Shown piece by piece: positions 2,623 through 53,139 of a stretch of 64,000 bases of DNA. Each line of letters begins with the position of its first letter. Positions within the stretch are counted from its first letter, which is position 1. The translations under genes and the position numbers were made by a program. Under the pieces are notes generated by a model. The model did no database searches and was not told the origin of the DNA. It saw only the letters and a program-made list of their open reading frames with translations. The stretch is from an uncultured delta proteobacterium (GTDB taxonomy: Bacteria > Desulfobacterota > Desulfobacteria > Desulfobacterales > Desulfosalsimonadaceae), in contig CAWGYD010000006.1 of the NCBI GenBank assembly GCA_963826785.1, forward strand, positions 288,001 to 352,000. Direction: 5' to 3'.

Positions 2623-2843
2623 GATTCGGCTCGTCCTTAAATTTCAATTCACTTGGCTTTTGACAATCATCATCCGGTCAACTATACTCCGGAACTTGAA
2701 ACGACGTGTTACGATAACCGAAAAATAAACGCAAATTCAACCATCATTTCATGATTGCAACCGGTCCGTGGCGGAGCCCCCCATAGCGCCAGACGCCCGT
2801 TGGCTGACCGGGTGTGCCGGAATGGATCAAAAAGTGTCCCTAA

Positions 2844-5320
2844 ATGAGCAGACGCAAAAAGAAGTGCGCACCTGCGCCATCCGATAAGACAACCGCCCCC
2901 TGCCCGATGCCCCCTGACGTTGCGCCGATCTCTGTGCCGGATCGGTTAACGGAAAAAGGTGCGTTCTTTTTGCTGTTATTTTTGATTCTCATGGTCCAGC
3001 TGTTCGTCTATTCCGATTTCATCCTGTTCAACCGGTTATACCTGTTTCTGGATATCGGGAGTGATTCATACAACCTGTTTTATCCTGGATTTGTGCACAT
3101 CGCCAGTTATCTGCGCACAGAAGGCCTTCCCACCTGGTCGTTTGCGGAAGGCATGGGCAAAAACATCTTTGCCGGGGGGATCAACAATCCGTTTCAGCTG
3201 ATCTTATACCTGATCGGTCCGGAACGGCTGGCATTCGGCATCGTGTTTGTGGAGATGCTCAAGGGGCTCATTACCGGCATCCTCTTTTTCCTCTACCTGC
3301 GCATCCGGCAGTTTTCCGGCGCGATCTGCCTCTTTGGCGGGATACTGGCAGCATTTCTGGGGTACCTGGTGCTGGGCGGCAGTGGCTGGTACGGCCATTC
3401 CACCAATGTGGTCTACTTCATGCTGCTGGTATATGCCTTTGAGCTTTGTTTCCAAAAAGGCAACTGGCTGCTGCTGCCCTTGGCCGTATTCTTTGTGGCC
3501 ACCAACCCCTTCCGGCTCTACATCTTCGGCGTCTTCATGCTGACCTACGTTCTTTTTCGCATGATGACGAAAAACGAATACGACTGGAAGAAAAGCATCT
3601 TTTTTCTGCTGCGGCTGGGTGGTTTCGGCCTGCTTGGTATCGGGCTGAGCGCCCTTTTTTCATTCGATAATCTGATGGGTATGCTCAACAGTCCGAGGGT
3701 TTCCGGAGACGTCTCCGCCGTCGGTGCGCTCTCCGCATCTCCGTGGTGGCATCTCCCCGACCGGTTGCAGGGGGCGACGGTGCTCATGCGGATGTTTTCC
3801 AACGACCTGATGGGGACCGGAAGCGATTATCGCGGCTGGTACAATTACATGGAAGCGCCGATCTTCTATGCGGGCCTGCTGCCGCTTATTCTGATTCCCC
3901 AGGCATTTTCCGTATCCGACCGGCGCAGACGGATCGCATATCTGTCGTTTCTCGCGTTGTGGTCGATTCCGCTGATCTTTCCATATGCCCGGCATGCCCT
4001 GTATGCGTTCATGGGCGATTATTACAAACATGGGCTTTCCATGTTCATCCCTTTTATCATACTGATATTTGGCATGTGGGGCCTTGAACGGGTCTGGCGC
4101 CATAAACTCCAGCCGCTTGTATTGGTTTTCACCACGGCGATTCTTCTCATCATCCTTTTTTACCCCTATTTTGACGGAACCGTTTATGAAGGGCAGACGA
4201 TAATCGACAACCACCTGAGACTTATCATCAGCCTGTTTCTGATCACATACACGGGGCTGCTTTATGCCATGCAGTACAAGGCCCTGAAACACTACATTTT
4301 CTATATGCTCTTACTTACCATCTGCATTGAAGCCGCTTTTATGTCCACCATCACCGTCAACCACCGGTCGACAATGACCCGGAAGCAATTTGAAAGCCGG
4401 GTGGGATATAACGATTATACCCTGGAGGCGATCGAGTACCTGAAAACCATCGATACGGGATTTTACAGGGTCAACAAGGATTATTCCTCCTCTCTTGCCG
4501 AGATCAACAGCTTAAATGACGCCAAAATTCAAGGGTATTTCGGAACGCCGTCCTATTCATCCTTCAACAGCCAGGATTACATCGAGTTTTTAAAAGCAAC
4601 CGAAATCATTCCCAAAGGTCAAGAGACTAAAACAAGATGGGCCATGGGTCTGCTCCAGCGCCCGCTCCTTCAGGCCCTTGCCGGGGTGAAGTATAATCTG
4701 GTAAGGACTGAAGAACTGCCAAAAAAAAGAATGGACGCGCTGTTTGACAAAACCTATACACCGATGGCGCAATTTGGGGATATCACGGTATTAAAAAACG
4801 AATTTTCGCTCCCCCCGGGCATCCCCTATGATGCCGCCATAAATTTAGCCGAGTTCAATCAATTGTCCCGGGTCCAGAAAGACATCATCCTGTTTAATGC
4901 CTGTATTCTGGAATCAGACCTGCCCGGCATCGACTTTCTATCCAGGGATGAAATCAAAACCATTCTCGGCGATGCCTCCTTGAGCCGCTTTTGGGAACTG
5001 TCAGCTCAGAAACGATCAGACGCCATGCAATTGACCCGTTTTACTCAAAAGCGATTCAAGGGTTTGATGACGCTGAAAAAGCAGAAGCTGGTCTTTTTTG
5101 CCATCCCCTTTGATGAGGGCTGGCAGGCGTTTGATAACGGCGCCCGGATTCCCTGATCAAAGCCAACATCGGTTTTACAGGTATTCTGCTTGGAAAGGGG
5201 GAACATGCCATAGAACTGAAGTATAAGGTGAAAAATCTGCCCCTGCTCATGTCTGTTTCAATGATTTCATTACTGATCTATTCTGGATTGGCGCTGATGC
5301 ATGTCCGCCGTAAAGCTTAA
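2844..5320 (+). CDS. YfhO-family multi-pass membrane protein (GT-C glycosyltransferase); one frameshift near 5152
   Basis: Many TM helices, DSYNLFYP first-loop motif, PFDEGWQAFDNG C-terminal motif; a second frame continues LIKANIGFTGILLGKGEHAIELKY...VRRKA to TAA 5318-5320, overlapping the flippase stop (TTAA). Confidence 0.85.
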
Positions 5321-6606
5321 CCGGCAAATCGCGGCCTGCAGGATATTCTGAAATAGAATTCCTTGATCAGGGTCAGTATCAGATAGGCAATCGATGTGGC
5401 ATACGCCGCACCGATATACCCCATGCGGCTCACCAGGATGAAATCGAGCCCCAGGTTGATGAGAAGTGCAAAAACAGTGGCGGACTGGAGAAATCTGAAC
5501 TGTTTCAGGGTGTCGAAAATGGGATCATAAAAGATGCCGTATAAGTTAAACATGGATCCTGCCAGCAAAATCTGCAAAACAGCCGCGCTTTCTGCGTACT
5601 GCGGCTTAAAGAACCAGGAGACCAGAATCGGAATCATCAAAAAAACAGCCCCGAAACCCGCTCCACCCAACATCAGGAGCTTAGTCCGCTTAACGTGCAG
5701 ATAATAGCGGATTTTGTCCGGATCATGGATGTGGCCGGCGATAAACGGCAGAAAATAAATCTGGAGGATGGCGGAAAGAAAAATCGTCCCCTTGAAAAAC
5801 TGGTATCCCAGATTGTAAATACCGATTTCGTTCATGCTCGAAAAGTGCCGAAGGATGATATTGTCTCCCCAGTTCAGCAGGTAGACCGCAGTGCCGCCCA
5901 GGACCATCCACTTGGTCAAATCGGCCATTTTAAAAAGCATCTTCTTGTCATATGCCGGGGGGAGAAGTTACTTGGTTTCTATTTTCGGAAGCATCAGCCC
6001 CGCTGAAAGAACTGCCGAAATCAAAAACATCATGAATGCAACCCCGATCGTGATCTCAAAAAAGAGGAAGAACAGCAGCAGGTACAGGATGGAAAACAAA
6101 GCTTTCAAAAAATGAAAGATCGACTGCAGGATCAGCCGGTCAAGGGCGATGAACAGTGAACCGATGAGCGCTTCTATTATTTTGCCGATAAAGACCAGCA
6201 TGAGAAAATAGACCTGGGACTCGGGTCAACCCGGTAAATGCCATGATCTGGTTTTGAACTGAAAGCAGGATGACCAGGAATATGCCAAGCGCCGCCGCAA
6301 GCATGACGGTTCGGGCCGTAATCGAAGCATTGATGCGTCCACTGGCCTTCAATTCCTCGCTTCCCAGAATAATCAGCGGCTTGTTGGATGAATTGACCAG
6401 CACGGCAACGAAAAAATAAGCGATCATCATGGAAAGCGAATAGATGCCGAAAACTTGGGGGAAAACCGGGTGGCCAGAAGGATGGGAACCACAAAATCAA
6501 GGCCGTACCCGAAACTGCGGATCGCGCCATAGGAGATCAGCCTTTTTCCCTCTTGCAATTCTTTTATCAACCAGTCAAATAGTTTAGAATTGAAAATGGC
6601 CAACAA
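5317..6606 (-). CDS. Wzx/MOP-family oligosaccharide flippase; split by several frameshifts
   Basis: Consecutive hydrophobic fragments 6427-6606, 6140-6430, 5968-6201, 5317-5940; DNIILRHFSSMNEIGIYNLGY and GYIGAAYATSIAY are typical of polysaccharide-biosynthesis flippases; start approximate. Confidence 0.8.
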
Positions 6607-6703
6607 GAACCTCTTTATTAAACCGCGACTGCCTTTAAAAATGAAGGCCGTATCCCCTGAAAAAACCAATACGTTCTTGGCCCGCCGAAAAATAACCAGG
6701 AAA

Positions 6704-6733
6704 AATTCCCCCCGGGGGGGGGGCAAGGGGGGA
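6704..6733. repeat. REP-like GC palindrome (CCCCCC/G-run-CAAGGGGGG)
   Basis: attccccccggggggggggcaagggggg resembles ccccccttgaggggggaatcaaagggg at 7565-7591. Confidence 0.45.
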
Positions 6734-6735
6734 AA

Positions 6736-8670
6736 ATGACCGACTTGATCAGAACACCGCCCTTCAAAAGCCAGCATTTCCGGGCCGCAATCTGATCATC
6801 GCAATTATGCTGTGCCTCGGCACCTTCATGCTTTACAGCCAAGTCACCCATTTTGATTTTATCAACTATGATGACATCGATTATGTATCACAGAATCCCC
6901 ATATTCAAAACGGCATAAATATCGAATCGATCACCTGGGCGTTCACCGCCTTTCATGGGGCAACTGGCACCCCCTGACCTGGATTTCCCATATGCTCGAT
7001 TATGAGATATACGGGCTTGACCCCGGGGGACACCACCTCACCAGCCTGATCTTCCACATCCTCAACACCTTGCTGCTGTTTGCCATCCTATTTCAGATGA
7101 CCGGGCGTTCCTATGCTGCCGGCTTTGCCGCAGCCCTGTTTGCCTTGCACCCCCTGCACGTGGAATCCGTGGCCTGGGTGTCGGAGCGAAAGGATGTGTT
7201 GAGCGCCTTTTTCGGCCTGCTCACCATCCGGGCCTATATCCGGTATGTCCTAAAGCCCGCTCTAAGCCGCTACCTGATGGTAATGATTTTCTTCGCCCTG
7301 GGTCTGATGAGCAAACCCATGCTGGTGACCCTTCCCTTTCTCCTGCTGCTGCTGATTCCTGGCCTGAACCGGTTTGGGCATTCAGAAATACTTCCCCTCC
7401 AAAGCAAGAATAAAAATTCGCCCAATTCCCCCCAGAAGGCCACATCCGCCAGCCCCCCCTTGAAAACATCCCCTCCGACCGATCCTTCCGTGAGAACGAC
7501 CGTCCCCAATTCCCCATCGAGGGGCACAGTCCTTACTTCCCCCTTGAGGCCCACCCCTCCCACTCCCCCCTTGAGGGGGGAATCAAAGGGGAGATGTCCG
7601 GGTGCATGGAGGAGTGTCCGGGGTGCCATCCTCGAAAAAGTCCCCCTGATCCTCCTGGTGATCCTCTCCAGCATCATCACCCTCTATGCCCAGGAGCACG
7701 GCGGGGCCATCCGGACCCTGGAGTTCAGCCCGCTCCATTTCCGGATTGCAAACGCCCTGACGGCATACTTACTCTACCTGGTCAAGATGGTCTATCCGGT
7801 CAACCTGGCCTTTTTGTATCCCTATCCGGACCACCTCCGGCCTGGAAAATCGCTGGATCGGCCCTTTTGCTGGGAATGATCACCTTTTTTGCCTTCAGGT
7901 TCCGGAAAGACCGACCCTGGCTGGCGGTGGGATGGGGATGGTATCTGATCAGCCTGGTGCCGGTGATCGGGATCATCCAGGTGGGCATGCAGGCCATGGC
8001 GGACCGCTACACCTACCTTCCCCTGATCGGCATCTTTATGATCATTTCCTGGGGAGCGGGAGATCTTGCTGCCAAACTCAACTTGTCCAAAAAGGTGACT
8101 GCAGCTGCAGCATTCATGGTGATAGCCGTCCTGACCGCGCTTTCTTTTGCCCAGATCGGCTACTGGAAAAACAGCATCACGTTATTTGAACACGCCATCG
8201 CCGTAACCCAAAACAACTACATTGCCCATTACAACCTGGGAAATGCGATAGCGGGAAAACAGCAATACGAGAAGGCACTTGCGCATTATCTTGCAGCCGT
8301 CGAGATCCGCCCCGCGTTTGCCGATGCCCACAATAATGCCGGCAACGTCTATCTCCTGCAAAAAAATCTGGATTCCGCCATCGAGCGCTATGAGAAGACG
8401 GTAAAACTCGACCCGGGCCGCACCGGCGCGCACTATAACCTGGGAATCGCCTATGAAAAAAAGGGGTGGACGGCAGAGGCGGCAATGCATTACAAACAGG
8501 CCCTGGCGTTAAATCCGGAATGGGAAAGTGCCTGGTATAAGCTCGGCATTGCGCTCTACCATCAGGGGGATATTGAAGGGGCGGTTGAAGCTTTCCAGGA
8601 GGGATTGAAAATTAATCCGGAAAATTCAGATGCAAGGCAAAACCTGGAGAAATTGCAAAAGCTGGGATAA
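6736..8670 (+). CDS. TMTC-like membrane glycosyltransferase (GT-C) with C-terminal TPR array; frameshifted near 6780, 6960, 7355 and 7836
   Basis: Reconstructed FDFINYDDIDYV (DD motif), NWHPLTWISHMLD, HPLHVESVAWVSERKDVL, SKPM, MADRYTYLP, then about four TPRs (AHYNLG, AHNNAG, AHYNLG, AWYKLG). Confidence 0.85.
7421..7591 (+). repeat. Degenerate ~27-nt in-frame tandem repeat ending in a REP-like palindrome
   Basis: Units PNSPQKATS / ASPPLKTSP / PTDPSVRTTV / PNSPSRGTV / LTSPLRPTP / PTPPLRGES; the last contains CCCCCCTTGAGGGGGG. Confidence 0.65.
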
Positions 8671-8740
8671 AAAATCATTGGAAGTATCGAAGAAGTAAAA
8701 ATCAGATGCCAGAAAATTCATTTAATCAGAGATCTTGTAT

Positions 8741-9211
8741 CTATGTCGTCTTTTTACCGGTTTGAATCCGTTTAAGGTATTTTACATCAACCCTATCCTG
8801 GTCTCTGCCGGTTGCTTCTTTATTTCTGATAAGGTCTTCCCTTGAAAGATACCACACATCAACATCGCCGTATTTTCCCATCGCCCGGCGGGTCCAAGCG
8901 TTTTCAAAGCCGGTGATTCCGGCAATTCTTGCCATCAAATCGATACGAACCGGTGCAACGCCCAATTGAACAATGGACTCGGGATTGCAAAGATCATCGG
9001 CGGTTAATCCCATGTCGGATCCGCCAAAAAATTCCCGGATGGTTTTTAAAATGGCGTTTGCAGATGAGGGGATGGCTTCATGGAGAATATCGATATCCTT
9101 GGTCGCCCTCGGACGGGCATGAAAGGCAACCGCGTGAGCACCGATGATCAGGTATTTAACGTGATTTGCGTTTAATAACTCGAAAAACTCTTCGTAGTCT
9201 TTCTGTGCCAT
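8741..9211 (-). CDS. Pol-beta-superfamily nucleotidyltransferase, putative TA component
   Basis: IIGAHAVAFHARPRATKDIDIL (G-x-x-A...DxD) and C-terminal LIRNKEATGRDQDRVD. Confidence 0.8.
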   Translation of the reverse strand: MAQKDYEEFFELLNANHVKYLIIGAHAVAFHARPRATKDIDILHEAIPSSANAILKTIREFFGGSDMGLTADDLCNPESIVQLGVAPVRIDLMARIAGITGFENAWTRRAMGKYGDVDVWYLSREDLIRNKEATGRDQDRVDVKYLKRIQTGKKTT

Positions 9212-9389
9212 GCGCACCCTTTGTTTTCAGGCAGCCCTGCAGACATTCATCCACGGCATCGACCCGCTCTTCCGGAGAAAGGCCTTCAAACCAGAACCGA
9301 AAATCCGCTTCTTCGGCCTTATCCATGGGAACGACCCTTGCCGTCCACAGCCGGCCATATTTATCTTTTGCGCTTCCCCGTTCATCCAT
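9156..9389 (-). CDS. Small hypothetical protein, upstream overlapping partner of the nucleotidyltransferase
   Basis: MDERG...EEADFRFWFEGLSPEERVDAVDEC...RLRRVFRVIKRKSR; overlaps the NTase start by 56 nt; retained in the decayed copy at 12.2-12.6 kb. Confidence 0.7.
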   Translation of the reverse strand: MDERGSAKDKYGRLWTARVVPMDKAEEADFRFWFEGLSPEERVDAVDECLQGCLKTKGAHGTERLRRVFRVIKRKSR

Positions 9390-9474
9390 ACTGAAATACT
9401 GCCTCAATTTTTGATCAGTTTAACCATAATACCATCATTTCTTGCAAAAAACAAAATGGATCTGCAGTAGATAG

Positions 9475-9709
9475 AACCCAAAGACGGCTGAAAAGAAGCG
9501 CTTTCGTGGAAAAGGTGATCGAGTCGTTTCCCATATATATATCCTTTTGAAGTTCCCGTCGCCAGAATATATGCACAACTATAGGCAAATCTGATCCAGC
9601 GAGGATTGCAGATCGGCGCCCATGAACTCATCATCGGCGCCACCTCCTTATCCCTCGAGTTTTCAGTCGCAACCTTCAGTAAAAGGCATTTTGAACGTAT
9701 CGAGGGGCT
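9475..9709 (+). pseudogene. Decayed copy of the 3' half of vapC
   Basis: Aligns with 10203-10433 (aacccaaagacggctgaaaagaagcgcttt...tatcgaggggctt); TGG to TAG change and an ATAT expansion frameshift. Confidence 0.9.
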
Positions 9710-9718
9710 TTCTGACCC

Positions 9719-9746
9719 TTGACAATTTCCAAACAATATGTAAATT
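9719..9746 (+). promoter_or_regulatory. Putative sigma70 promoter of vapBC
   Basis: TTGACA-16 nt-TAAATT upstream of a GGAGG RBS and ATG 9779. Confidence 0.5.
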
Positions 9747-9778
9747 TTGATTATCATATTTTACATGGAGGCTGAAGA

Positions 9779-10060
9779 ATGGAAAAACGTATCTCCGCTA
9801 CGCAGACGGTAAGAAAATTTTCAGAAGTGCTCAATACCGTGATTTTTAAAAAAACGCGTTACATCATCGAAAGAGGCGGTAAGCCAGTGGCCTCGATACA
9901 ACCCATTGGCGACAAACCGGACTTAAAAACATTGGATGAACTAACTGACCTGATGAAAAAACTGCCAAGGCTGGGGGATGAATTGGATGCCTTCGCCAAA
10001 GACCTTGCCGATATTGGAAAGGAGCAGCCGCCAGTGACAGCTGAGGATTTATGGGCGTAA
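9779..10060 (+). CDS. Phd/YefM-family antitoxin
   Basis: ISATQTVRKFSEVLNTV...IIERGGKPVASI Phd signature; overlaps the PIN toxin gene. Confidence 0.88.
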   Translation: MEKRISATQTVRKFSEVLNTVIFKKTRYIIERGGKPVASIQPIGDKPDLKTLDELTDLMKKLPRLGDELDAFAKDLADIGKEQPPVTAEDLWA

Positions 10061-10458
10061 TCCTCGACACAAGCGTTCTTATCGAAGCTGAACGACAGGC
10101 CTCCGACATCCGGGTATTTATCGAAAATCGGAGAGAAGAGGTCTTCGGGTTAAGTGTGATATCGATTGCCGAACTCCTTCACGGCGTGCACCGGGCTGAT
10201 TCAACCCAAAGACGGCTGAAAAGAAGCGCTTTTGTGGAAAAGGTGATCGAATTGTTTCCAATCTATCCTTTTGAAGTCCCCGTCGCCAGAATATATGCAC
10301 AACTCTGGGCGGATCTGATCAAGAAAGGATTGCAGATCGGCGCCCATGATCTCATCATCGGCGCTACCGCCTTATCCCTCGGGTTTTCAGTCGCCACCTT
10401 CAATAAACGGCACTTTGAACATATCGAGGGGCTTAAAATTGAGATGATCAATTTGTAA
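10051..10458 (+). CDS. vapC: PIN-domain ribonuclease toxin (VapC)
   Basis: ILDTSVLI, SIAELLHG, DLIIGATAL, TFNKRHF acidic PIN motifs. Confidence 0.92.
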   Translation: MGVILDTSVLIEAERQASDIRVFIENRREEVFGLSVISIAELLHGVHRADSTQRRLKRSAFVEKVIELFPIYPFEVPVARIYAQLWADLIKKGLQIGAHDLIIGATALSLGFSVATFNKRHFEHIEGLKIEMINL

Positions 10459-10460
10459 AT

Positions 10461-10502
10461 TTAACGCGGTTTGCGTTTAATAACTCGAAAAACGCTTCGT
10501 AG
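10461..10502 (-). repeat. 42-bp fragment of the nucleotidyltransferase-pair junction
   Basis: ttaacgcggtttgcgtttaataactcgaaaaacgcttcgtag vs ttaacgtgatttgcgtttaataactcgaaaaactcttcgtag at 9156-9197. Confidence 0.85.
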
Positions 10503-10620
10503 GTAAGTCAAGCCACTCCAGAACATGCCGAAGGGCTCGCGGTAATCTGACAATTCCGTATCAATCCATCTCACTATCAAACCCAAATGCGGAGGTGCCC
10601 GACCATGGCTTCTTATGGCC
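10503..10620 (+). mobile_element. Probable left-end remnant of an IS110-family element (structured non-coding end, RBS and first codons)
   Basis: Nested inverted repeats; GGAGG (10591-10595) 9 nt before ATG GCT TCT TAT GGC (MASYG), which resembles the M-x-x-Y-G-x-I-D-L-H start of IS110 transposases before the sequence breaks off; family assignment is from recognition, not a search. Confidence 0.4.
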
Positions 10621-10708
10621 GACCGATTCCAATTTATCAATTTTAATGATTTGATCCCGCTCAGACAAGAAAGCAGTCCGCAACACCTTTCCGGAATTAC
10701 AATAACAG

Positions 10709-10727
10709 GTATACTGTCCCCCGAATT
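10709..10727 (+). repeat. Junction motif copy A (GTATACTGTCCCCCGAATT)
   Basis: Direct similarity to copies at 10788 and 11817. Confidence 0.75.
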
Positions 10728-10742
10728 CCACTGCGGTGCTCG

Positions 10743-10818
10743 GCTGCGGGACAATGGGAAAGAACAAGCACTATGGCTCTCTAATGGGTATTATGTCCAT
10801 GGAATTGGGACCGGAATT
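10743..10818 (+). repeat. Junction repeat copy B (GCTGCGGGACAATGGGAA..AACAAGCA..CTAAT..GTATTATGTCCATGGAATT, plus an extra CCGGAATT)
   Basis: Direct repeat with 11765-11835, flanking the GNAT TA pair. Confidence 0.85.
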
Positions 10819-11316
10819 GAAAGATTTTATAGCCAGAAACAGTCTCTGGCCGTCATCTCTTAATGGATTAAATCCAAAACGCTCATAAAAACGCTTGGCA
10901 TTATTATTGACGGCATCCACAACCAAGGCATAAACGGCGACTTCATCACTGACAGACAAAAGGCGCTTAACTGCGTCAGCAAGCAGCATTTTGCCGACTC
11001 CCTTTCCCTGGGCGAATTGGCTGACCGCCAGCCGGCCAATCAAGACGGCGGGGACCGGGTGTTTAGGTAATTTTCGAGATAGATTTTCAGGTAATTGGCT
11101 TAACTCGATCGACAAGCTGCTCAAAGTATAATAACCAACCACTTCCTTGGGGCGGTCTTTTTCCACGGCTACAAATACACGGCTGATATGGCGTTTAATA
11201 TCCTGTGTTGCCTGTTTCTGAAGGTAGTTGTCGAATATTTCAATCCCGCAAGAAAAATTTGGCCGGTCATGAGTCGTGTTGAGCGGTTCAATGATCAAAT
11301 TATAAAAATCATTCAT
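10771..11316 (-). CDS. GNAT acetyltransferase toxin (TacT/AtaT-like)
   Basis: HDRPNFSCG, FDNYL, GYYTLS, PAVLIGRLAVSQFAQGKGVGKMLL, VDAVNNNAKRFYERFGF. Confidence 0.92.
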   Translation of the reverse strand: MNDFYNLIIEPLNTTHDRPNFSCGIEIFDNYLQKQATQDIKRHISRVFVAVEKDRPKEVVGYYTLSSLSIELSQLPENLSRKLPKHPVPAVLIGRLAVSQFAQGKGVGKMLLADAVKRLLSVSDEVAVYALVVDAVNNNAKRFYERFGFNPLRDDGQRLFLAIKSFNSGPNSMDIIPIREP

Positions 11317-11606
11317 TTGCTAATGACACGCTGAGAGTGTTCTTCAAGGGCGTCCGTCAGTTCGCTGTTGAAGCGACCCTTAGCTGCCAAAGCATCGAAG
11401 AAAGCCTTTGAGTTCTTGGCATTTAAAGATATAAACTCATGATCATGAACGGTTTTTTTGGCCTGCTCCAAAGCACTATGTAAAACAAATTTACTGACAC
11501 TCTTTCCTTCAAGGCCGGCAGCACGCGTTAAAAGGCTTTTAACGCTACTCTCCAACCGGATGTTAATCCGTTCTTTATTGGTTTGCGTCGAATTTTTCAA
11601 AATCAA
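11313..11606 (-). CDS. DUF1778 ribbon-helix-helix antitoxin (TacA/AtaR-like)
   Basis: ERINIRL...LLTRAAGLEGKSVSKFVLHSALEQA...ISLNAKNSKAFFDAL; 4-nt overlap with the GNAT gene. Confidence 0.92.
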   Translation of the reverse strand: MILKNSTQTNKERINIRLESSVKSLLTRAAGLEGKSVSKFVLHSALEQAKKTVHDHEFISLNAKNSKAFFDALAAKGRFNSELTDALEEHSQRVISK

Positions 11607-11633
11607 TGTCCTTTTATTTCAAGGTATATTGGC

Positions 11634-11672
11634 GTTGACAAAAATGTACGTCATAATGGTGCCTTTGTCAAC
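11634..11672 (-). promoter_or_regulatory. Promoter/operator of the DUF1778-GNAT operon
   Basis: Minus strand TTGACA-17-TACATT inside the inverted repeat GTTGACAAA...TTTGTCAAC, consistent with autorepression. Confidence 0.65.
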
Positions 11673-11764
11673 AGGGGTTTGGTCGGAGATTTTCAATCAA
11701 TATATTGTGGCCTGTTTTTCAGATTACAGTGAGATTAATTGGTTACCCACTCATACATTGCCCT

Positions 11765-11835
11765 GCTGCGGGACGATGGGAACAAGCAGGCCTTATCCCT
11801 CCTCCCTAATAATTTAGTATTATGTCCCCGGAATT
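11765..11835 (+). repeat. Junction repeat copy C (GCTGCGGGACGATGGGAACAAGCA..CTAAT..GTATTATGTCCCCGGAATT)
   Basis: Direct repeat with 10743-10806. Confidence 0.85.
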
Positions 11836-12139
11836 CCCTATCCTATTTAATCCCCGCTACGCCCAGACCGCCACTATATTTCAGATCCTGCTGGTCGGAT
11901 TATTTTTTAATTTCTACTCAATGTTCTATGACCCGATCTTCGACAGTCTCAAGCGCTACCGGTTCATCCAGACCGCCACCATCGCCTGCGTAGCTTTCAA
12001 CCTGCTGCTCGACTATATCCTGGTGATGCGCATCGGCTATACGGGCGCGGCGGTTGCCACCGCCCTGACCTATTTTCTGTTTGCGGTGATCAAGGAGGTT
12101 TACTTCAGGACCCGGTGCAAAAATGCTTTGCCGGATTGA
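11822..12139 (+). pseudogene. C-terminal fragment of a flippase paralogue fused to the repeat-derived start MSPEF
   Basis: FNPRYAQTATIFQILLVG..FYDPIFDSLKRYRFIQ..GYTGAAVATALTY..IKEVYFR aligns with the C-terminus of the 5317 flippase (FKPQYAESAAVLQILLAG..FYDPIFDTLKQFRFLQ..GYIGAAYATSIAY..IKEFYFR). Confidence 0.8.
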
Positions 12140-12237
12140 AAGGTGAAATTATGGCATGGTGCGGGCGGTAATCAATTTTTTCTTTTTTTCCGGACTAAAC
12201 CGGTTGGTATTCAAGATGAGGATTTCGGATTTGGGTG

Positions 12238-12596
12238 TGGCTTCACGGAGAATATCGATATCATTAGTCACCCCAGGCCGGAATGTACGGCAGCTGCATG
12301 AGTACCGATGATCAGGTTTTACGAGATTTGCGTTTTATAACTCAAAGAACGCTTCGTCGCTTTTCTTGCCATGCTCACCCTCTGTTTTCAGGCAGCCGGA
12401 CGACATTCATTTATGGCGTTTAGCCGCTCTTCCGGAGAAAGGCCTTCAAACCAGAACCAAAAATCCGCCTCTTCGGCCTTGTCCATGGGAACACCCCTTG
12501 CCCTCCACTGCCGGCTATAATGTCTTCGCGCTTCCCCGTTCTTCCATACTGAGGTATCGCCTGAAATTTCAAGATTCCGTTATAATTCATCATTTC
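12238..12596 (-). pseudogene. Decayed second copy of the small-protein/nucleotidyltransferase pair
   Basis: Collinear with 9073-9440, e.g. identical ccgctcttccggagaaaggccttcaaaccagaacc; indels; NTase truncated after the DxD motif. Confidence 0.9.
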
Positions 12597-12701
12597 AGTG
12601 GGGAACAAAAGGATTGCGGGATAATTCGAAAAATCACGGGGACTTTTCACAAAAGATAACGACCTACGCATGGCGGCAGGTTAAAGGAGGGAAAGGCGTG
12701 C

Positions 12702-12738
12702 AAAGGAGGCGCCTATTAATTCCAGGCGCCTCCTTTTT
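12702..12738. terminator. Bidirectional intrinsic terminator
   Basis: AAAGGAGGCGCCT-loop-AGGCGCCTCCTTTTT just past the stop of the Ig-domain gene. Confidence 0.85.
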
Positions 12739-12758
12739 CATAATTTAACTATGATCTA

Positions 12759-15700
12759 TTAAGGCACTGTTCCACAAGGTAGCACATTAAAGGGTGATTC
12801 TGGGAACGCTTCTGCAATCACTGATTTTTCACTCGTCATGAGCGGTAGCCATTTCCGGGAATTGGTAATGTATTCCGTTCCGTATACCATACAGATGGCG
12901 GTAATCTGGTCCTCGACCCACCAAGCGTATTCCTTTTGGAAGATCAATTTGAAACTGGCCACACCGCTGTCATCGGTCATCACGGATGCTGGGATCGTGC
13001 CAGCTGCCGACTGACCTGGGGTGAGCGTGCCATTTCCCAAACCCGGCACCCGGTCACCTGAGGCCATATCCATTGAAATAATCCGGTAAATTCGGATTTC
13101 CGATATTATGCAGTCGCCGCATCTTCATCACCGTCAAGAAAAGCATTGTTATTGAGATCTTCATTGACGAAGTAAAAGGGAGGTTCCCGCGAGAGGATCT
13201 CGAGTATACAGTCGGTATTTGATTCCCGTCGCAGGGATTATCATAGCACAACATTCCACTCGTCATTCCAGTATTTCGTCCAGAACCCGTGGCATAACGC
13301 GTCGGGCATCAAGACTAAGAGATACCAAGAGTATCCCGGAACAGGATTGCCGTTAGTATCAGCGACCAAAAGAAATCGTCTGCTCATAAAGAGTATTGTC
13401 GGATTGGAGATTTGATATTGGTGGCATATCCGATGAAATATTCGCCACCCGGCCGGTGATCACTATAGAAACACCGTTATCTTCGCGATATCCCAGATCC
13501 TCACCTTGAATAATATCATTAATCGTAAAGCCAGTGCCGCCCCGATCATCACATCTGCATCCGTGACATCCCCGCAGGTTTCTATATGTAGCGTGCACTT
13601 CTTATCAGAATAATAATAAAACCGGTGGATTCCGGGCGCAGCATGGTTGGTTACAGGCCCCGCGGAAGTTACTGTAACTGTACTCCCGCTAATTGTTGCA
13701 TGAAACCCGGAATTAATTCAAGCGCATTCCACGTATTCTGAGCTATGCCCGTTGCAGATTCATTTGCGGCAATGGGAACTTGAACTCCGGTCTCCCAGGC
13801 ACAAGGGATCGTATAAGGAACATATGTCCACCAGAGACACAATACCACACATAATAATTTCGCCTGGGGTTGAAATTGTAAAATTTTACCAAGCAGACTT
13901 TCCGATAAATCAGCTTCGCATGTAATGGTGGTAATTTCCCTTTCGGTATAAGATGAATCAAATCCTGCCATAGCGTCAATGGCATTCTCTTGTTGCTGAA
14001 GTCACTTCACACTGGGATGCCCCAGAAACGATCCAACTTCAATCGGCGTTGATCCCGCCGGTGCCGGGTCAGTCCCCATCCCATCGATATTATACAAGTA
14101 ATAAGGGACATCGGGTTCGGCGGCATAGAAGCAAATAAATGGTGAAATAATCGTTATTGTCCAGTGTCGCTTCATCGACACACTGGATTCAGTGGTTTCA
14201 TTTGCACATCCCTTGGGATTCGCCCCCGGGCCCTGATCCGAACTGCGGATGCAGGATCGCTTCCGGTGCTCAATGAACGGAAGTAAACGTTGTCCTGGCG
14301 ATGCCTGCGGAATTGGTTACCGCGGAAACAGGAGAAATATACTCTCCGCCACCGGTGGTATTCTCCAGATAAAAATCAACAACCGCATCCCCAACCGGCC
14401 CCATACAAATCGATGATCTTTGCCTCAATAACAAGGCTATATTTAGATATCTCTGTACTGGGCGGAATATTGGTCTGGTTTGCATTAATCATGATATCAT
14501 GTGCCTGACTGGCCGGTGTATAAAATGAAATCTGGGTAAGATCGACCAATCAAGGATAAGTGGCTTTATCTCAGCATACGACCTGAATGGTGGCCACTCC
14601 GGCTTGCGCACTGGACAGATTCAATGTCACATTTAGATTATCATTATTGATCAGGTATTGGCTTTATGACTGTTTTTCCAGTTTCACCTTCCCATGCCCC
14701 AAAACTCGTGACAAAAACAATATTCTCTAATTGTTCATTCCGCCGGCGTGAATGGTGACCGCTACGTTTCCGCCGCAGCTGGGGCGGAATAGGGGCTGAT
14801 ACTGGGCATGGTAATATTGAATAGGTCATCTGGCTCACCAATGGTGTAAGTCCCCTCGACCGTCATATCCAGGCCTGTAGCAATGATGGTAGCTTCTCCT
14901 GTCAGGTCTCTCGCAGTTAAAACAATGCTCGATTTCGCCGTGCATAATTGGTTTTTGGATTACCGGTCGGCGGTAAGCCGGAAAGGGTAGCGTTGCTTAA
15001 ACCAGCATTAAAGGATACAACAAATTCCGCATTGTAAATGGGCATGCCATTTTCCGCATCCACTACTTTAATGATGATCTCCTGCTGTTCATAGGGCGCT
15101 GTCAGACTTGTACTGAGTTGTGCAGTGGAAGGAGTGATAGTGACTTCCGTTCCATATCGTTGAATCGGGATACTTGCGGATTTTTCGGCCAACTTGCGGT
15201 GATAGATGTATCATTGAATGGTTATCAGGTCCTGGATTTGATGATAACGGAAGCTTCGCCAGCTGCATCTGTATCCACGCTGGATGCGCTCATCTGACCA
15301 CCGGTGGTTTCAAAGCTGACGGCCACACCTTCAAGGGGGACAAAATTATCGTCCAGGATCAGCGCGGTGGTAGTCGCACTGTCTGTCCCATTGGTTTTAA
15401 TGGATGTCTTAGATGCTGATAAGGTAACGCTGTTTACAATAGGCACACCGGATGATCCACTGATGGAAACAGATCGGACTGAGTCACGTTTCCGGATTTT
15501 GCAACCACTATCTGATTGCCCGCAATGTCCCCCGCAATTAGAGAGGTATCAACTACGCCGGTATCCGTAATTAAAAGGATTGATATCAGAAAGCGTGCCA
15601 AAATCGTAAAGCAACGAAAATTCGATCAAATGTTCCTATCGGCACCGGCTTTCCATCCGTCCCCTTTCACAGACGCCGTGATCTTCGATAAACTCCTTGC

Positions 15701-18700
15701 CGTCTGCCGGAATCTCATCCCGAAAAGCTGTTAAAGTTATGGAGCTCACAATAGTCGGATTGTAAAATAAAACCTCAATGTCTGGGTGACACTTCCCGAA
15801 GTCGCTTTTACAATGGCAGTCCCCAGGAATAGCACTCGAAATCAAAGAAACGAAAACAGTACCGTCGTTTCCGGCTATGGTCGCAGAGTCAGGAACCAAG
15901 GTCCCTATTGCTCCGCCCGTACCAAAGCTAAAGATGATTTCGGTGCCCTGTGGCATCGGATCGCCGTTGGTGTCTGTAACAACGGCTTTTATGGTAGTTG
16001 AACTGATACCATTCGCAATTATAGTGTCATCAGGGGTTGATAAAGAAATCCCCCCAACGACAGCATCATTTGTTCCTTCGCCGGTAAATGTGATCAACAT
16101 GGATTGCGATTTGGATCCAGCCGTGGCTGTCACCTTGGCCACATCAGGCGAATCGGCTGCAATTAATGATGTGGTGACCGTGCCGGTGCTTCCGGTGGTA
16201 TAGAGGGTGACAGACTGCACCAGCGGCAATGTCCCAAAAGCGAAGCTGCCGCTATTGGTTGTAAAGACTACCGGGGTTCCCACGGGCACCGGATTGCCTG
16301 AAGTATTTTTAACGGTTGCGGTGATGGCGGTTGAACTTGAACCGTCAGCCGGAATGCTGGTCCTGGAAGCAGCCAGTGTAATCGAACCGACGACCACCGA
16401 ACCATCATCGATGATGATATTGAGCACCTGTGTGACGCTTCCGGAAACAGCGGTGATTTTGGCCACTCCGCCATCTTCGCCGGCCATCAGGGACGTGATG
16501 ATGGTTCCGGAATTATCGGCCGTATAAAGCGTTCTCTGGCTGGTTAAACGCTGTGCCTTCGCCATCCGGGTCGGTTCCGCCGGGGAATTCCCCCCGTGTG
16601 GTCTTGAAGGTGATGCCGGTTCCTTCCGGCATGGGGTTGCCGGTGGTATCGAATACTTTGGCGGTAATCGATGTCGAACCGGTTCCGGCCGGAATCGTGC
16701 TGGCTCCCGACGTAAGGGTCATATACCCCACAATTCCGGAAGGGATTCGGACATCAACACTGGTGGTGTCCACGATGCTGCTGTTGCTTGCGGCCCGGAC
16801 GCGGATCCGGTCGGTTCCTTCGGTAACACCGGCAATATAATTGACCGTGGCCCGGCCGTTGACGTCGGTGGTCTGTTTGACGGCGGAAAGGCTGCCGTTG
16901 GTGTTGTTGTCGTAAAGATCGAAGTAGAGCATTTCCCCTTCCACCGGCTGTCCGGCGCCGTTGTTGAGTTCGGCGATGATGGTGGACTGCGCGCCCGGCA
17001 GGACGGTTTCCGGCACGGCCTCGACATTCATGCCGCCGGCTTTTCCTGAGGTCAGCAGCACATCGACCCGGGCCTTGAATCCGTTGGCGTCTGCGGTGAC
17101 GGTGGCGGTGCCCCAGGTGGTGCCGCTGCGCAGGGTCACTTCGGCAAAGCCGTTCTGGTCCGTGGTTTTCTGGGACAGATTCAACGATCCCAGGGTGGTG
17201 GAAAAATCCACCGTGATTCCCGGCGCCGGCTGGTTGTTGTAATCCAGCACGGTGGCCCGGATGGTGGTGGTCGACCGGCCGTCCGCCTCCATTTTATCGG
17301 TACCGGCTTTGACGCTGATGGCGCCGACAATAACGGCATCGGGATCGACGGTGACGATTACCTTCTTGTTGACCCCGTTGCTGACCCGGGCCATGATCTC
17401 CAGATCAAAATTGCCGTAGACAGCGCCCAATGTCGAACGATAGACGCCGTCTTCCGCCTGGTCCGGTGTCATTTCCTTGGAATCGAGCACCTCGCCATTG
17501 CCGTAAGCCTGCCGCACCAAAAACGTCAGCCGCTGGTCATCCAGGCGATTGTTGTAATAATCCATGACGATGGCGGCGATGTTGAACTGGCCATTGGGCG
17601 GAACGATATCGGGAAGCGCATACATGACGATGTGATCGGCGGGACCGGGGATGAACTGGATATCCACCTGGGCGATAAAGCCGTCGCATTCCGCGCTGAC
17701 CGTGGCCGGTCCGGCAAATGTCGAGGAGAGCAGCATGACCTCGGCCAGGCCGATGTCACTGGAGGTGGCGCTTGCGGCTTTCAGCACCCCCGCGGTGGTT
17801 TTGAAGGTCACGGTCTTTCCGGCGGCGGGATTTCCGTCAATGTCGGTTACGGTGGCCCGGATCTTGACCTGGCTCTTGCCGTCCGCCACGATGGAAGGTG
17901 ATCCGGAGACTTACGGTAATCTCTCCCATCACAATGGCGCCCGGCTCGACCACGATGGTTGCGGTCGCTTTCATGCCGGCATCCTTTGCCAGCGATCCCT
18001 GCACCACATCGGATCCGGCATCTTTGCCGCAGGTGAAGGGCACTTCGGCCACGCCATTCATATTGGTGACAGCGGAAAGCGTATCGAGCCCGCCGCCGCT
18101 GGCGATGATCAGATTGGAAAAGTTGACGGTGACGCCCTCAATGGGGTTGTCATTGATATCGAGAACCTGTGCGTAAACGGTGGTGGCCCCCTTCGGACGG
18201 ACGGTGGATGGCGCGGCCCGCAAAGCCAAGGTGGCGGGATCGCCGGCGGTGAAGGTGACGGATGCGGCTGCAAAGAGACCGTTGGTCGAAGCGGTGATAT
18301 CGGCCGTACCGATGGATGTGCCGCTGATCAGCATTAAGGGCGCTTCACCATCCACATCGGTCACTGCCGTCTGGTTCCGGTTTAAAATACCCGGATCGAT
18401 GGGGTTTTCCTCAAAAAACTGCCCCAGGGTGGTTTTGAAATGAACGGTCACCCCGGGTTCGGGATTGCCGTTGGCATCGAGAACGGTGGCAATGACCGCC
18501 ACCTGGCTGCTGCCGTCGGCCTGAATGGCGTCGCTGCCGGTCCGCAGGGTGATGGTGCCCACCTTGTGGGGATCAAAAAAACGGACCTCGACTGCCTGGC
18601 GGGACCCATTGGCTTCCGCCGTCACCTCGGCGGTGCCGGAGGCATTGGCGGCGATCAGCTGGGCGATGGCAATTCCCGAGGCCTCAACGGTGGCCACCGC

Positions 18701-18973
18701 ATATTTCTTTTCCCCGTTGGGGAATTTTCCCAGGTTGGTCCTGAAGGTGACCTGTGTCCGTTTGTCCACCGGCTTTCCTTCAAAATCGGTCACCAGCGCC
18801 CGAATCGCGGTTGAAGATACCCCGTCGGCAGGCAGTTCAGCTTCTGCTGCAGAGAGACTGATTGACGCCGCATCATAACCAGGAGTTCCTTGATCGCTGC
18901 ACCCTATCAGTAAAAATGCAAGAAAACTTACCAGTAATAAACGAAAAGTTATCTTTGCATATGCGTTTCTCAT
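12759..18973 (-). CDS. Giant (~2000 aa) invasin/intimin-like Big_1 Ig-repeat lipoprotein; many frameshifts in the 3' part
   Basis: Signal peptide with lipobox LLIGC; repeated ADGxSxxxIxAxVxDxxGNP...VxFxTxxG units across ORFs 17837-18973, 16513-17889, 15636-16565, 15225-15446, 14917-15192; Ca-loop-like NEDLNNNAFLDGDED near 13120-13166; C-terminal fragment 12759-13073. Confidence 0.8.
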
Positions 18974-19032
18974 GGAAAAGATCCTTTCAATTTCTATTTT
19001 ACGGCGGCCTGCCTGTTTCACTTTTCGTCTCA

Positions 19033-21453
19033 TTACCGGGTCTCCACCTGAACCAGATTTTTCTGTTCAAGCTGTACAATTCGGGGGGTTATGAATATCA
19101 GCAGTTCATTCTTGGTATTTTCCTTGCTCACACTTTTAAACAGCCACCCGACGATGGGCATGTCCTTTAATACCGGGAATCCGGATTCACTTTCCTGCAG
19201 AGTGGTCTTCACCACCCCGCCGATGACGATGGTATCACCGTCATCCACCAGGAGGCGCGTCTGGGCCTCATTGGTGGAGGTGATCAGATCGCCGCTGGGG
19301 GCTTCGCCCACGATCTCATTCTTTGTGGTGGTGATATTCAATGAAATTCGGCGATCTGCGGTCACCTGGGGTGTGACTTCCAGCAGCAGGTCCACATCCT
19401 CAAACGCGATGTTGACTTCATTGTCTTCAACCGTCTGGTAAGGAACCCGCAGTCCCTGCTTGATCATGGCGGACTGATTATCCAGGGTGAGAATTTTAGG
19501 CGAGGAAATGATCTTGCCCTTGCCTTGCTGCTCCATCGCCCGCAGGGCGGCGTCAAGAACGAAGGGGGTCCCCCACGCGTCCAGTCTCTCGAAATTAAAG
19601 GCAAGCAGCCCGGTGCTGTCGTTGTTGCCTTTATAAGGCGTATTCATGACCAGATTGTATCCGTACTGGCCGCCCAGGTCATTGCTGTAGATCTCCTCGC
19701 CCGAAGCACCCCATTGAAATCCGAGTTCCCGGGTATAATCATCATTGACTTCAACGATTCTGGCCTCGATCTGGACCTGCATCGGCACCGTATCAATCTT
19801 TTCGATCACCTGTTTGGCTTTTTGAATGGCATCCTGCGTATCGGTGATGATCAATTGGTTGTTGCGCTTATCCACCGTGATTTTGCCGCGGGGGGTTTTG
19901 ATGTCGCTGAGATGGCTGACAATTTCCTTATCCGCATTCGCATAACTGATTTCGATAAATTCCGTGAACAGGGGTTCCAGTGTCTTTTCCTGCTCTTCCC
20001 GCTCCTTCATGGCCTTAATCTGCTCCTGGCGGGCTTTTTCCTCATTCTTTATCGTACTCAGGGTGGCCACCCGGATGATATCGCCTTCCGGAATGGTTCC
20101 CAGCTGATTCATCCGGCAAACCAAATCCAGCACCTGGTCCCATGGGACCGGTTTGTCCAGAGAGATGGTCACTTCCCCGTTGACATTCTTGTCAATGGCG
20201 TAATTTTTACCGCTGATCTGCTGCAGGATGCGAAATACGTTCTTGATATCGGTTTTGTAGAAATCAAGAGCGATTTTCTGACCTTTATAATCCTTCCGGG
20301 CCATCACCAGTTTCGCATAGGGGTCGTCGGAAACCGCCTGAATGTCGGTCACCTGAGCATCAGATGTCGATGCGGTTGGAATTTCATCAACTGTTTCCGC
20401 TTTATTCAGAACCTGCTGCCAATCGGGGAGATTTGCCGCCTCCAATGGCCGGGGGCCGATGGAAGACGGATCAAAATACACTGTGATATCGGTTCCGTCC
20501 TGAATGGGACGGTAGGGAACGGTTTCCCGCAGCTCGATAATAATATCGGTGATGTTTTCTTTTTCGGATGTCTGTACCGGGCTGACGCGGTCCACGGCGC
20601 TTTCAAACCGGGTGGTGATCAGGGGCCGGTTGCGCCTGAATTGCGGCAGTTTGCTGTTAAACAACCGGATCCGCAGGGTGCGATCCGAAACTTTACTGAT
20701 ATCAAACTCGACCGGTTCGGTGGTGCCGATAATCACCGCTGATTTTCCGGATTCCTGGCTGGAAAAATCAATCCGGTCGATTACCGCCGGGCGGCCGCTC
20801 TTTGCCAAGGGGGCCTGTTGTTTCTGCGGGGACTGTTGCGCCGGGATGATTTGGGCCAAAGCAACCGGTTCTTCTTCCAGCGCCAGGATCGGCTGCGCTT
20901 CAGATAACATTGCGCCGGACTGCTCATCGATCTGTTCGACGCCAATTTCATTTTCCATTATGGGATTACTGACGGATGCGGCGGCGATGGCGTTGAACAA
21001 GACCTCGAGATCCGGCCCTTTGCGCTCCACCGTGTATTCCGCATCCTTTTTCAGATCGATTTCGATCCGGGCGTTGTTCTGATCCGGCTGCTGATACGTT
21101 TTGATCGATGCGATGATATTGCTGTTCGGCTGTGTTTCAGCCTGAATATCGGCAAGCGATGTCTGCGGAAAATAAAGAACCACACCGACGGGCTGGTTCT
21201 TTTTGACGGACGTATACTGAAGTTCTGTGTTTCCGCTGATGATGAGCCGATCCAATGCGGTCGAATCCGCGCTTCGGCTGCCCGATACCATAATCCCGGT
21301 AATCTGCTTGGGAACAGCGGCCTTTTCAGCAACGGCATCTTCCTTGGCCGGCAGGGACCGGCAGCCGGCACCGCATGCCACCAGGATCAGCAAGGCACAT
21401 AAAAAATTTCCTACATGGCGCTTCGTCGACATCACATTCCTAAGATCATGCAT
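19033..21453 (-). CDS. pilQ: Type IV pilus secretin with AMIN-like N-terminal domains
   Basis: Lipobox GAGC; QVQIEARIVEV, IISSPKILTLDNQSAMIKQG, PVLKDMPIVGWLF, ELLIFITPRIV. Confidence 0.95.
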   Translation of the reverse strand: MHDLRNVMSTKRHVGNFLCALLILVACGAGCRSLPAKEDAVAEKAAVPKQITGIMVSGSRSADSTALDRLIISGNTELQYTSVKKNQPVGVVLYFPQTSLADIQAETQPNSNIIASIKTYQQPDQNNARIEIDLKKDAEYTVERKGPDLEVLFNAIAAASVSNPIMENEIGVEQIDEQSGAMLSEAQPILALEEEPVALAQIIPAQQSPQKQQAPLAKSGRPAVIDRIDFSSQESGKSAVIIGTTEPVEFDISKVSDRTLRIRLFNSKLPQFRRNRPLITTRFESAVDRVSPVQTSEKENITDIIIELRETVPYRPIQDGTDITVYFDPSSIGPRPLEAANLPDWQQVLNKAETVDEIPTASTSDAQVTDIQAVSDDPYAKLVMARKDYKGQKIALDFYKTDIKNVFRILQQISGKNYAIDKNVNGEVTISLDKPVPWDQVLDLVCRMNQLGTIPEGDIIRVATLSTIKNEEKARQEQIKAMKEREEQEKTLEPLFTEFIEISYANADKEIVSHLSDIKTPRGKITVDKRNNQLIITDTQDAIQKAKQVIEKIDTVPMQVQIEARIVEVNDDYTRELGFQWGASGEEIYSNDLGGQYGYNLVMNTPYKGNNDSTGLLAFNFERLDAWGTPFVLDAALRAMEQQGKGKIISSPKILTLDNQSAMIKQGLRVPYQTVEDNEVNIAFEDVDLLLEVTPQVTADRRISLNITTTKNEIVGEAPSGDLITSTNEAQTRLLVDDGDTIVIGGVVKTTLQESESGFPVLKDMPIVGWLFKSVSKENTKNELLIFITPRIVQLEQKNLVQVETR

Positions 21454-53030: not shown

Positions 53031-53139
53031 TAGCTTGTTTTCTCACATCATTGAAAAATCCCGTGTGCATCCTTACTTTAACCTGAAGAAACGGCGGCGC
53101 CCCTGAATGCAGCGCCAGGGAGTCACAGAAGGAGTCGAA

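Follow-up and report, generated by a model that had tools for sequence, protein, structure and literature searches.

We analyzed a stretch of 64,000 nucleotides from an uncultured delta proteobacterium of the Desulfosalsimonadaceae (assembly GCA_963826785.1, contig CAWGYD010000006.1, positions 288,001-352,000 of the forward strand; hereafter, the window) and found that three copies of a short polar repeat, named A, B and C, are orphan terminal inverted repeats (TIRs) of a TIRtron. TIRtrons are described in the text of Di Nocera et al. 2013 (PMC3733652) as genes similar to REP-associated tyrosine transposases (RAYTs), flanked by TIRs with the GGGGWSAS core and found as singles, dimers and clusters. 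Their enzyme, TIRYT, is the TnpA-Y1 subclass 2.1 in the text of Quentin et al. 2018 (PMC6006769), with key motifs NHVH, W[EQ] and YIELNP, and corresponds to the Group 1 RAYT in that of Bertels et al. 2017 (PMC5581495). The kind of element is therefore already known, and the orphan ends described here belong to it. We consider it probable that the enzyme nicks just outside the TIR and that each end is joined alone to new DNA, with deletion. The identity and polarity of the TIR, joins at 1-5 nt outside its GAATT end, the lack of target duplication and the stutter of partial ends (stubs) were observed directly.

TIR copies in the window and across bacteria

The three copies lie on the + strand with their motifs at 10709, 10788 (two mismatches) and 11817, as reported in the first-pass annotation, which had been made from the sequence alone; 100 shuffles gave 0.16 copies on average, and none reached three. 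The motif was then taken to be 19 nt long, but the true length is 25 nt, with six more conserved 5' positions. TIR A (10703..10727, + strand) has its outer end GAATT at 10723-10727, abuts the start of the inner block of B and scores 31.4 bits against a position weight matrix (PWM). TIR B (10782..10806, + strand) is decayed (22.4 bits), and TIR C (11811..11835, + strand) is the best preserved of the three (41.5 bits) and gives an in-frame ATG at 11822. The GGGGWSAS core is matched by A on the - strand, off at its last base in C and decayed in B; 141 of the 155 copies listed in the scan described below fit it, partly by construction of the search pattern.

The inner block of C (11747..11810, + strand) has a diverged local duplicate in the inner block of B (10728..10781, + strand), so the common upstream block noticed earlier is real, with 74% identity over 43 nt. 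The global alignment score of the two blocks is 39, versus -6±7.5 for 2000 random window segments; the single random draw above 39 scored 100 and can only be B's own region. Elsewhere no such block was found beside a TIR: a metagenome scan gave four matches, and in an order-wide scan seven of 300 other genomes matched, all without a TIR. The block is thus a local duplicate rather than part of the family's end, and we dropped it as a family feature; its interpretation as a worn inverted TIR was dropped as well, as its PWM scores are far below 0. Judging from the alignment, B and its block together are a diverged copy of the corresponding unit at C, and the outer end of A abuts this copy. Two stubs, both pointed out earlier, accompany these ends. 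One, CCGGAATT on the inner side of A (10691..10698, + strand), was read from the sequence and is possibly a remnant of an older end. The other follows B (10807..10818, + strand) and consists of four flank bases and an 8-nt TIR suffix (CCGGAATT at 10811), a stutter typical of the family.

Besides the window, the whole host assembly (4.43 Mb, 87.8% complete) holds two copies at ≤2 mismatches, both on contig C4. One stands directly before the start of the genome's best Y1_Tnp match, a gene followed after its stop by a decayed TIR on the opposite strand that has 17 nt identical to TIR C (counted by eye); the other lies past a HicA-type pair. The C4 gene carries the motifs NHIH, WQ and FIELNS and is broken, with internal stops and Phe at the position of the relatives' catalytic Tyr. 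At ≥20 bits the PWM finds six sites in the genome (three in the window, two on C4 and one on contig C1 by a ParE-Phd pair) and none in the reversed control. Four further Y1_Tnp matches were tried as the cognate enzyme and dropped, as they have no adjacent TIR site of ≥13 bits; L002 and L005 show other repeats and L003 shows palindromic repeats of its own. The L002 locus (G000:C4:321312-324641) has a second Y1 gene, apparently intact and of another type, whose own inverted repeats recur downstream in tandem.

An exact scan of the GTDB representatives gave at least 133 stretches with the motif, and the matches listed comprise 155 distinct copies, of which 93 are in loci with flanks up to 2.5 kb and 62 have flanks of only ~300 nt. 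Record titles of the matches listed include Planctomycetota, several proteobacterial classes, Desulfobacterota, Bacillota and Campylobacterota. In the host family, the motif occurs at ≤2 mismatches in 47 of 58 genomes, with far fewer matches in the reversed control; confinement to this one locus, which the first-pass annotation had named as the case that would undo its proposal, is not what we see. Since the search pattern fixes the 19 central positions, the informative part of the alignment is the asymmetry of its flanks: in 153 copies, six extra 5' positions are conserved (consensus AATTAA, up to 1.2 bits), whereas the 3' side holds ≤0.16 bits per position. A Y1 gene lies within 400 nt of 35 of the 155 listed copies, 21 times with the TIR at the gene start and 14 times at the gene end, and always on the GTAT side, which makes GAATT the outer end. 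The earlier proposal of a polar, fixed-end site tied to a Y1-HUH enzyme absent from the window is borne out by this one-sided distribution.

The 93 longer-flanked copies include 19 with a Y1 gene inside, 16 in mini-pairs, 47 solo ends and 11 with a short inner flank. Among 51 inverted TIR pairs, 15 enclose a Y1-HUH gene; intact elements have 692-729 nt between the TIRs, and mini-pairs are many. Proteins of the two intact relatives in L198 have the motifs NHVH, WQ and YIENNP, in line with the key motifs of subclass 2.1. A conserved tail of ~95 amino acids is present, in which no Pfam helix-turn-helix match was found at E up to 1 (the profiles did not include the hidden Markov models of the original authors). 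NCBIfam REP_Tyr_transpos scored 67-70 bits, versus a cut-off of 80. L198 itself (2664-9729) contains, besides two intact TIRtrons with 90% amino acid identity, a deleted copy; an RHS-like gene and repeated small genes are adjacent, and a TIR there provides the start of a lipoprotein-like hydrolase gene. Two more high-copy repeat families, with dozens of matches per genome, were noticed in genus g9 of the host family (L202:4003-4223 and 7054-7160).

The inverted repeats around a Y1-HUH gene, on C4 (broken gene, one decayed TIR) and in the 15 pairs elsewhere, are the anatomy of a TIRtron, whereas the window holds orphan ends only. The system had first been put forward as a candidate for an undescribed one; its repeat is the TIR of elements described in 2013 (PMC3733652) and assigned to subclass 2.1 (PMC6006769) in the text of these papers. 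According to the same text and Table 1 of Quentin et al. (PMC6006769), subclass 2.1 is prevalent in delta-proteobacteria and is the second-largest Y1-HUH subclass, present in 14.9% of strains. Group 1 RAYTs are called unable to duplicate in the text of Bertels and Rainey (10.1101/2021.07.10.451892); in contrast, genome G017 has two intact copies, 90% identical, within 7 kb and a deleted third. The REP/REPIN-RAYT systems (REP, repetitive extragenic palindromic; subclasses 2.2 and 2.5) are similar in their Y1-HUH enzyme, short repeats spread in trans and doublets, but the TIR has no GTAG-footed hairpin, barely folds (-1 to -5 kcal/mol) and is present at low copy number, with the six sites of ≥20 bits mentioned above.

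Junctions, stubs and a possible mechanism

Junctions were compared between species, mostly in fragmented assemblies, and read by eye; kin among the genomes are not independent. In nine junctions set against TIR-less or differently joined alleles of sister species, homology resumes 1-5 nt past the end, most often 2 nt (offsets +1/+2, +2, +2, +2, +2, +2/+3, +4, +4 and +5); in a tenth, the interval is a stub plus 6 nt. The junctions fall partly mid-gene, with the rest of the gene missing on the far side (G052 versus three genomes), and partly at or just past stop codons, and at one of them relatives hold an older TIR remnant at the identical spot. Target duplication is absent in the 51 inverted pairs, with 0 shared nucleotides in 39, one in nine, two in two and three in one.

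In G061 and G008 (L275 versus L307), the same TIR and its 1.5 kb of inner DNA are joined to different outer flanks, and the junction of another differs between L266 and L286. An identical 66-nt mini-pair occupies unrelated sites in two genomes, and a block-plus-TIR unit of 61-63 nt (L263/L277) occupies two positions within the same locus in G060 and G008, and ~1 kb of the adjoining DNA is absent from G008. The outer side varies from one relative to another and the inner side remains with the TIR, so that the DNA 3' of GAATT behaves as target. This polarity is opposite to that of the first-pass annotation, where the DNA 3' of GAATT was read as cargo, although the sharp conservation boundary expected there is indeed present, both in the 153 aligned copies and in the nine junctions. 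The changed outer flanks and the 47 solo ends fit one-ended transposition and, equally, adjacent deletions. At L098:301-354, two convergent genes are separated by a TIR mini-pair of 54 nt, and each of them apparently loses its stop codon at the junction.

A GAATT stub is found within 40 nt outside 52 of 145 ends, versus 13 and 10 of 145 in control segments further out (Fisher p=4e-8). The usual stub consists of a TIR suffix of 5-25 nt and the first 1-4 flank bases; its outer boundary is fixed and its inner boundary is variable. Telomere-like stub arrays of up to 12 units were seen at TIR outer ends in L013, L012, L028:3280-3445, L081, L093 and L044.

In the window, TIR B is followed by its stub, ~3 foreign nt and a TacT-type GNAT toxin gene (10822..11316, - strand; Pfam PF00583), whose open reading frame (ORF) runs on through the stub and TIR B to 10771. 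Next to it is the TacA antitoxin gene (11313..11606, - strand; Pfam PF08681, E=8e-21). Six relatives hold this TacAT module at 67-84% identity, with TacT homology extending to the C-terminus, and their proteins end with KSI/QSI-stop in four cases and one or two residues later in two. The toxin gene has thus lost its own stop, as had been noticed, but it is not cut mid-gene: approximately the last codon and the stop are gone. On the other side, homology with the six relatives stops at a conserved element upstream of tacAT (11645..11671, - strand), which is the probable tacAT promoter/operator.

TIR C is followed by the 3' ~100 codons of a polysaccharide flippase (11840..12139, + strand), in agreement with the earlier reading; the homology begins within ~4 nt of C's outer end and covers residues ~322-417 of ~420-residue proteins, and a tblastn search of the assembly found no separate 5' half. 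A second flippase, full-length but frameshifted (5317..6582, - strand), is 54% identical to the fragment and lies on the strand opposite to a yfhO-like gene (2844..5320, + strand, with a frameshift near 5150). In all seven relatives that hold a flippase, it is located 3' of yfhO on the same strand. The fragment after C shares the strand of yfhO, and its identity to the flippases of two relatives is 62% and 59%, versus 47% and 49% for the inverted full-length copy; the flippase of relative L159 goes the opposite way (51% to the fragment versus 53% to the full-length copy). This pattern of strand and identity suggests that the fragment, instead of being cargo, may be what C left of a resident yfhO-linked gene.

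HUH enzymes form a 5'-phosphotyrosine and a 3'-OH able to prime synthesis or attack, as stated in the text of PMC8266576. In the model that we favor, the enzyme would act in trans, supplied by the C4 gene before it broke or by an unassembled copy, and would nick the strand reading into the element at a point ~2-4 nt outside the TIR. The 5' end of the element would stay enzyme-bound, with the 3'-OH of the flank pointing into the element. Joining of the element's 5' end to a 3'-OH elsewhere, as IS91 oriIS does, would give a fixed-end joint with no target site duplication (TSD) and with the old neighbor lost; as the ends would be joined singly, adjoining target DNA would be deleted or exchanged, not duplicated. 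Alternatively, extension of the flank 3'-OH by a few bases followed by re-ligation would leave a stub, that is, a TIR suffix and 2-4 flank bases, with a fixed outer and a variable inner edge. In the window, C would have joined inside the flippase gene, with its 5' three-quarters lost; a copy of C with its inner block, the present B, would then have joined at the tacT stop, and A would later have joined into the block of B. Toxin-antitoxin (TA) genes would collect at such sites owing to the tolerance of accessory hotspots for events of this kind, and they may sometimes ride on the inner side.

The joining in this model would have an IS91-like polarity, but the element is not IS91. IS91 transposases belong to a different, larger HUH family. 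The text of PMC13181058 describes IS91/ISCR elements, which use an HUH enzyme, as creating no TSD, joining target DNA at one fixed end and mobilizing neighboring DNA by one-ended events. TIRtrons likewise have an HUH enzyme and show no TSD and a fixed end joined to target; however, both ends are the same inverted repeat where IS91 has distinct oriIS and terIS, and where IS91 has a tetranucleotide target, the 153 copies have the near absence of conservation after GAATT given above.

A broader proposal is put forward more tentatively. TIRtrons with this TIR may be horizontally spreading elements, not domesticated genes, with an undescribed chemistry in which the Y1-HUH enzyme takes each 25-nt repeat as an independent oriIS-like end, nicks 2-4 nt outside it, joins it to new DNA so that deletion takes the place of duplication, carries along inner DNA that sometimes includes TA modules, and leaves telomere-like arrays of stubs from abortive cycles of nicking, extension and re-ligation; the orphan ends would in that case serve repeatedly as sites of rearrangement at TA, defence, RHS and polysaccharide loci in many phyla. 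The text of the two TIRtron papers (PMC3733652 and PMC6006769), whose figures and supplements may list this TIR, does not say where the cut lies, nor does it describe deletion of target, absence of a TSD, the stutter of stubs or a link with TA genes, and in the literature searched, which left out most subscription papers, we found neither a test of the TIRYT enzyme nor an account of stubs or target deletion. Such enzymes are known for acting on single-strand hairpin ends, which raises the question of how one of them would move ends that are inverted repeats. From the patterns of junctions and stubs it can be predicted which strand is cut and that the cut lies 2-4 nt outside the TIR, and intact candidate genes are available in L198 (2721-3383, for instance), L021, L034 and L037; the interest of the system lies in these testable signatures rather than in an integron-like function. 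If the model is true, orphan TIRs would be an overlooked source of gene truncation, of new starts (through the in-frame ATG of the TIR) and of reshuffling of accessory loci, with the window locus as a worn example that has no working cognate enzyme in the assembly.

Toxin-antitoxin neighbors and alternative explanations

The genes next to TIRs were called with a crude custom gene caller. The nearest outer genes (n=73) include 11 from TA or defence families (six TA-type and five restriction/defence-type), versus none of the 43 window genes at 19-63 kb (p=0.007; a weak control), and five of 50 inner genes of solo ends are TA-type. The first-pass annotation had proposed to look for TA/defence cargo; such genes are enriched among the outer neighbors, but they form a minority. 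Clusters of TIRs in the host family are found at TA, RHS-like and polysaccharide loci; these loci had been chosen for their many TIRs. All three TIR-bearing loci of the host genome adjoin TA pairs: the window, C4 (HicA and VapC-Phd) and C1 (ParE-Phd). The TA link is co-occurrence at hotspots with possible passive carriage, not a cassette architecture. No account of Group 1 RAYTs within arrays of TA cassettes was found in the text of Bertels et al. 2017 (PMC5581495), in that of its preprint or in the other literature searched.

The evidence for a dedicated gene-collecting, integron-like system is weak, and we consider it improbable that TIRYT acts in trans to build or reshuffle arrays of TA/defence cassettes between same-orientation sites. 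Such capture would agree with the TA pairs at all three loci of the genome, with the TA pairs between same-orientation TIRs in L206 and L207, with 16 direct pairs spaced 401-2000 nt and, within the limits of the control, with the excess of TA/defence genes among outer neighbors, as well as with L194 (G015:C4:113500-128000), where six TIR mini-pairs lie along a polysaccharide-biosynthesis cluster, several of them at gene borders. However, 62 of the 73 outer and 45 of the 50 inner neighbors show no TA/defence family (many show no family at all), and neighboring TIRs are oriented in all ways (47 direct, 41 inner-facing and 20 outer-facing). The anatomy of the would-be cassettes is not fixed and genes are cut, the fetched TacAT loci of the six relatives have no TIR motif nearby, and one TIR-bounded cargo at two sites was never seen among the loci compared, nor were circles seen, in reads that gave no coverage of the window junctions. 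Integrons (IntI, attI, attC) also have repeated sites by TA genes in accessory clusters, but they move complete cassettes in a single orientation between direct sites, which contrasts with the mixed orientations and cut genes seen here; moreover, no tyrosine recombinase is present among the 73 scanned window ORFs, and the TIRs fold only weakly. The integron-like arrays proposed earlier are not supported by these data.

The same orphan ends, cut genes and stubs could in principle be decay, left by ordinary TIRtron insertions or miniature elements in intergenic DNA that host recombination and slippage have eroded, in which case they would be uninformative on chemistry. Most outer neighbors do look like complete ordinary genes (EF-G, chorismate synthase, LuxS), mini-pairs and elements with internal deletions occur often, one junction (L270) has a microhomology deletion of 9 nt at a distance of 119 nt, and the 61-63 nt unit of L263/L277 resembles by eye a mini-pair with one worn end, although its PWM score is below 0. 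Nevertheless, we find this explanation unlikely: in nine junctions the breakpoints cluster at 1-5 nt from the outer end, which random decay does not predict, the stubs have a fixed outer and a variable inner boundary, no TSD is seen in the 51 inverted pairs, and no contiguous empty site was seen among the loci compared. A simple local duplication of arbitrary sequence, or dif-like Xer sites, can hardly explain the repeat at all. B and C do have a purely local block in common, and the motif resembles a XerD arm; yet the spread of the exact motif over at least 133 stretches in many phyla and, at ≤2 mismatches, over most genomes of the host family, together with its strict polarity to Y1 genes, refutes local duplication for the motif itself. 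The family consensus has no two-arm dif layout, and the Xer literature searched shows no title on these repeats; the dif/Xer interpretation was dropped.

Several observations weigh against single-end joining by a TIRYT enzyme. The model rests on comparison of sequences; the cognate C4 gene has stop codons, so nothing shows current activity, and the divergence of B from C suggests that the events are old. Junction offsets range over 1-5 nt, GAATT is present as well in 24 of 145 inner segments of 40 nt, and later unrelated deletions could have removed the 'other half' of a junction. Four comparisons were uninformative: L194 has no close relative in 15 genomes, L264 has no match, and for L272 and for L266 versus three genomes homology stops 100-200 nt before the TIR. 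For the window junctions, no close relative or reads span them; a public run contained 8% of the words, and as its six contigs covered paralogous TA pieces and no junction, it speaks neither for nor against the model. A search for an empty site of the window in 40 relatives matched only the TacAT module and single genes. The tree of flippase C-termini does not settle the placement of the fragment after C. Finally, three duplicated pieces in the same patch (9470-9710, 10460-10509 and 12200-12569) have no TIR at their ends, so that not all reshuffling there is TIR-made.

Other features of the window

The three ends lie in a TA-rich patch bordered by a glycosylation cluster and by an Ig-domain gene that is fragmented. 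On A's inner side lies a Phd-VapC (PIN) pair (9779..10458, + strand), preceded by a DUF6036 nucleotidyltransferase gene with a small upstream partner (8741..9407, - strand), which we interpret as a probable TA-like pair. The three TIR-less duplicates derive from these pairs: a partial duplicate of vapC with 89% identity (9470..9710, + strand; a copy of 10198-10434), a ~45-nt fragment of the gene junction of the DUF6036 pair (10460..10509, - strand), and a truncated duplicate of this pair (12200..12569, - strand), 81% identical to 9035-9411. The first-pass annotation had seen no integrase or transposase in the window, and accordingly none of the 73 scanned ORFs (18 + 55) matches such families. 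An Rfam search at 8000-14000 gave two matches below and nothing above the gathering score.

Genes split by frameshifts are found in 12759-19033, 5317-8670 and 53107-55236; they include the Ig-like/invasin-domain gene after the pilMNOPQ operon, the flippase, a PMT-TPR gene and nrdD, a pattern that suggests uncorrected indels in the assembly. Upstream of phd-vapC, a near-perfect palindrome (9737-9765), kept in the relative L148, is a probable autoregulatory operator.

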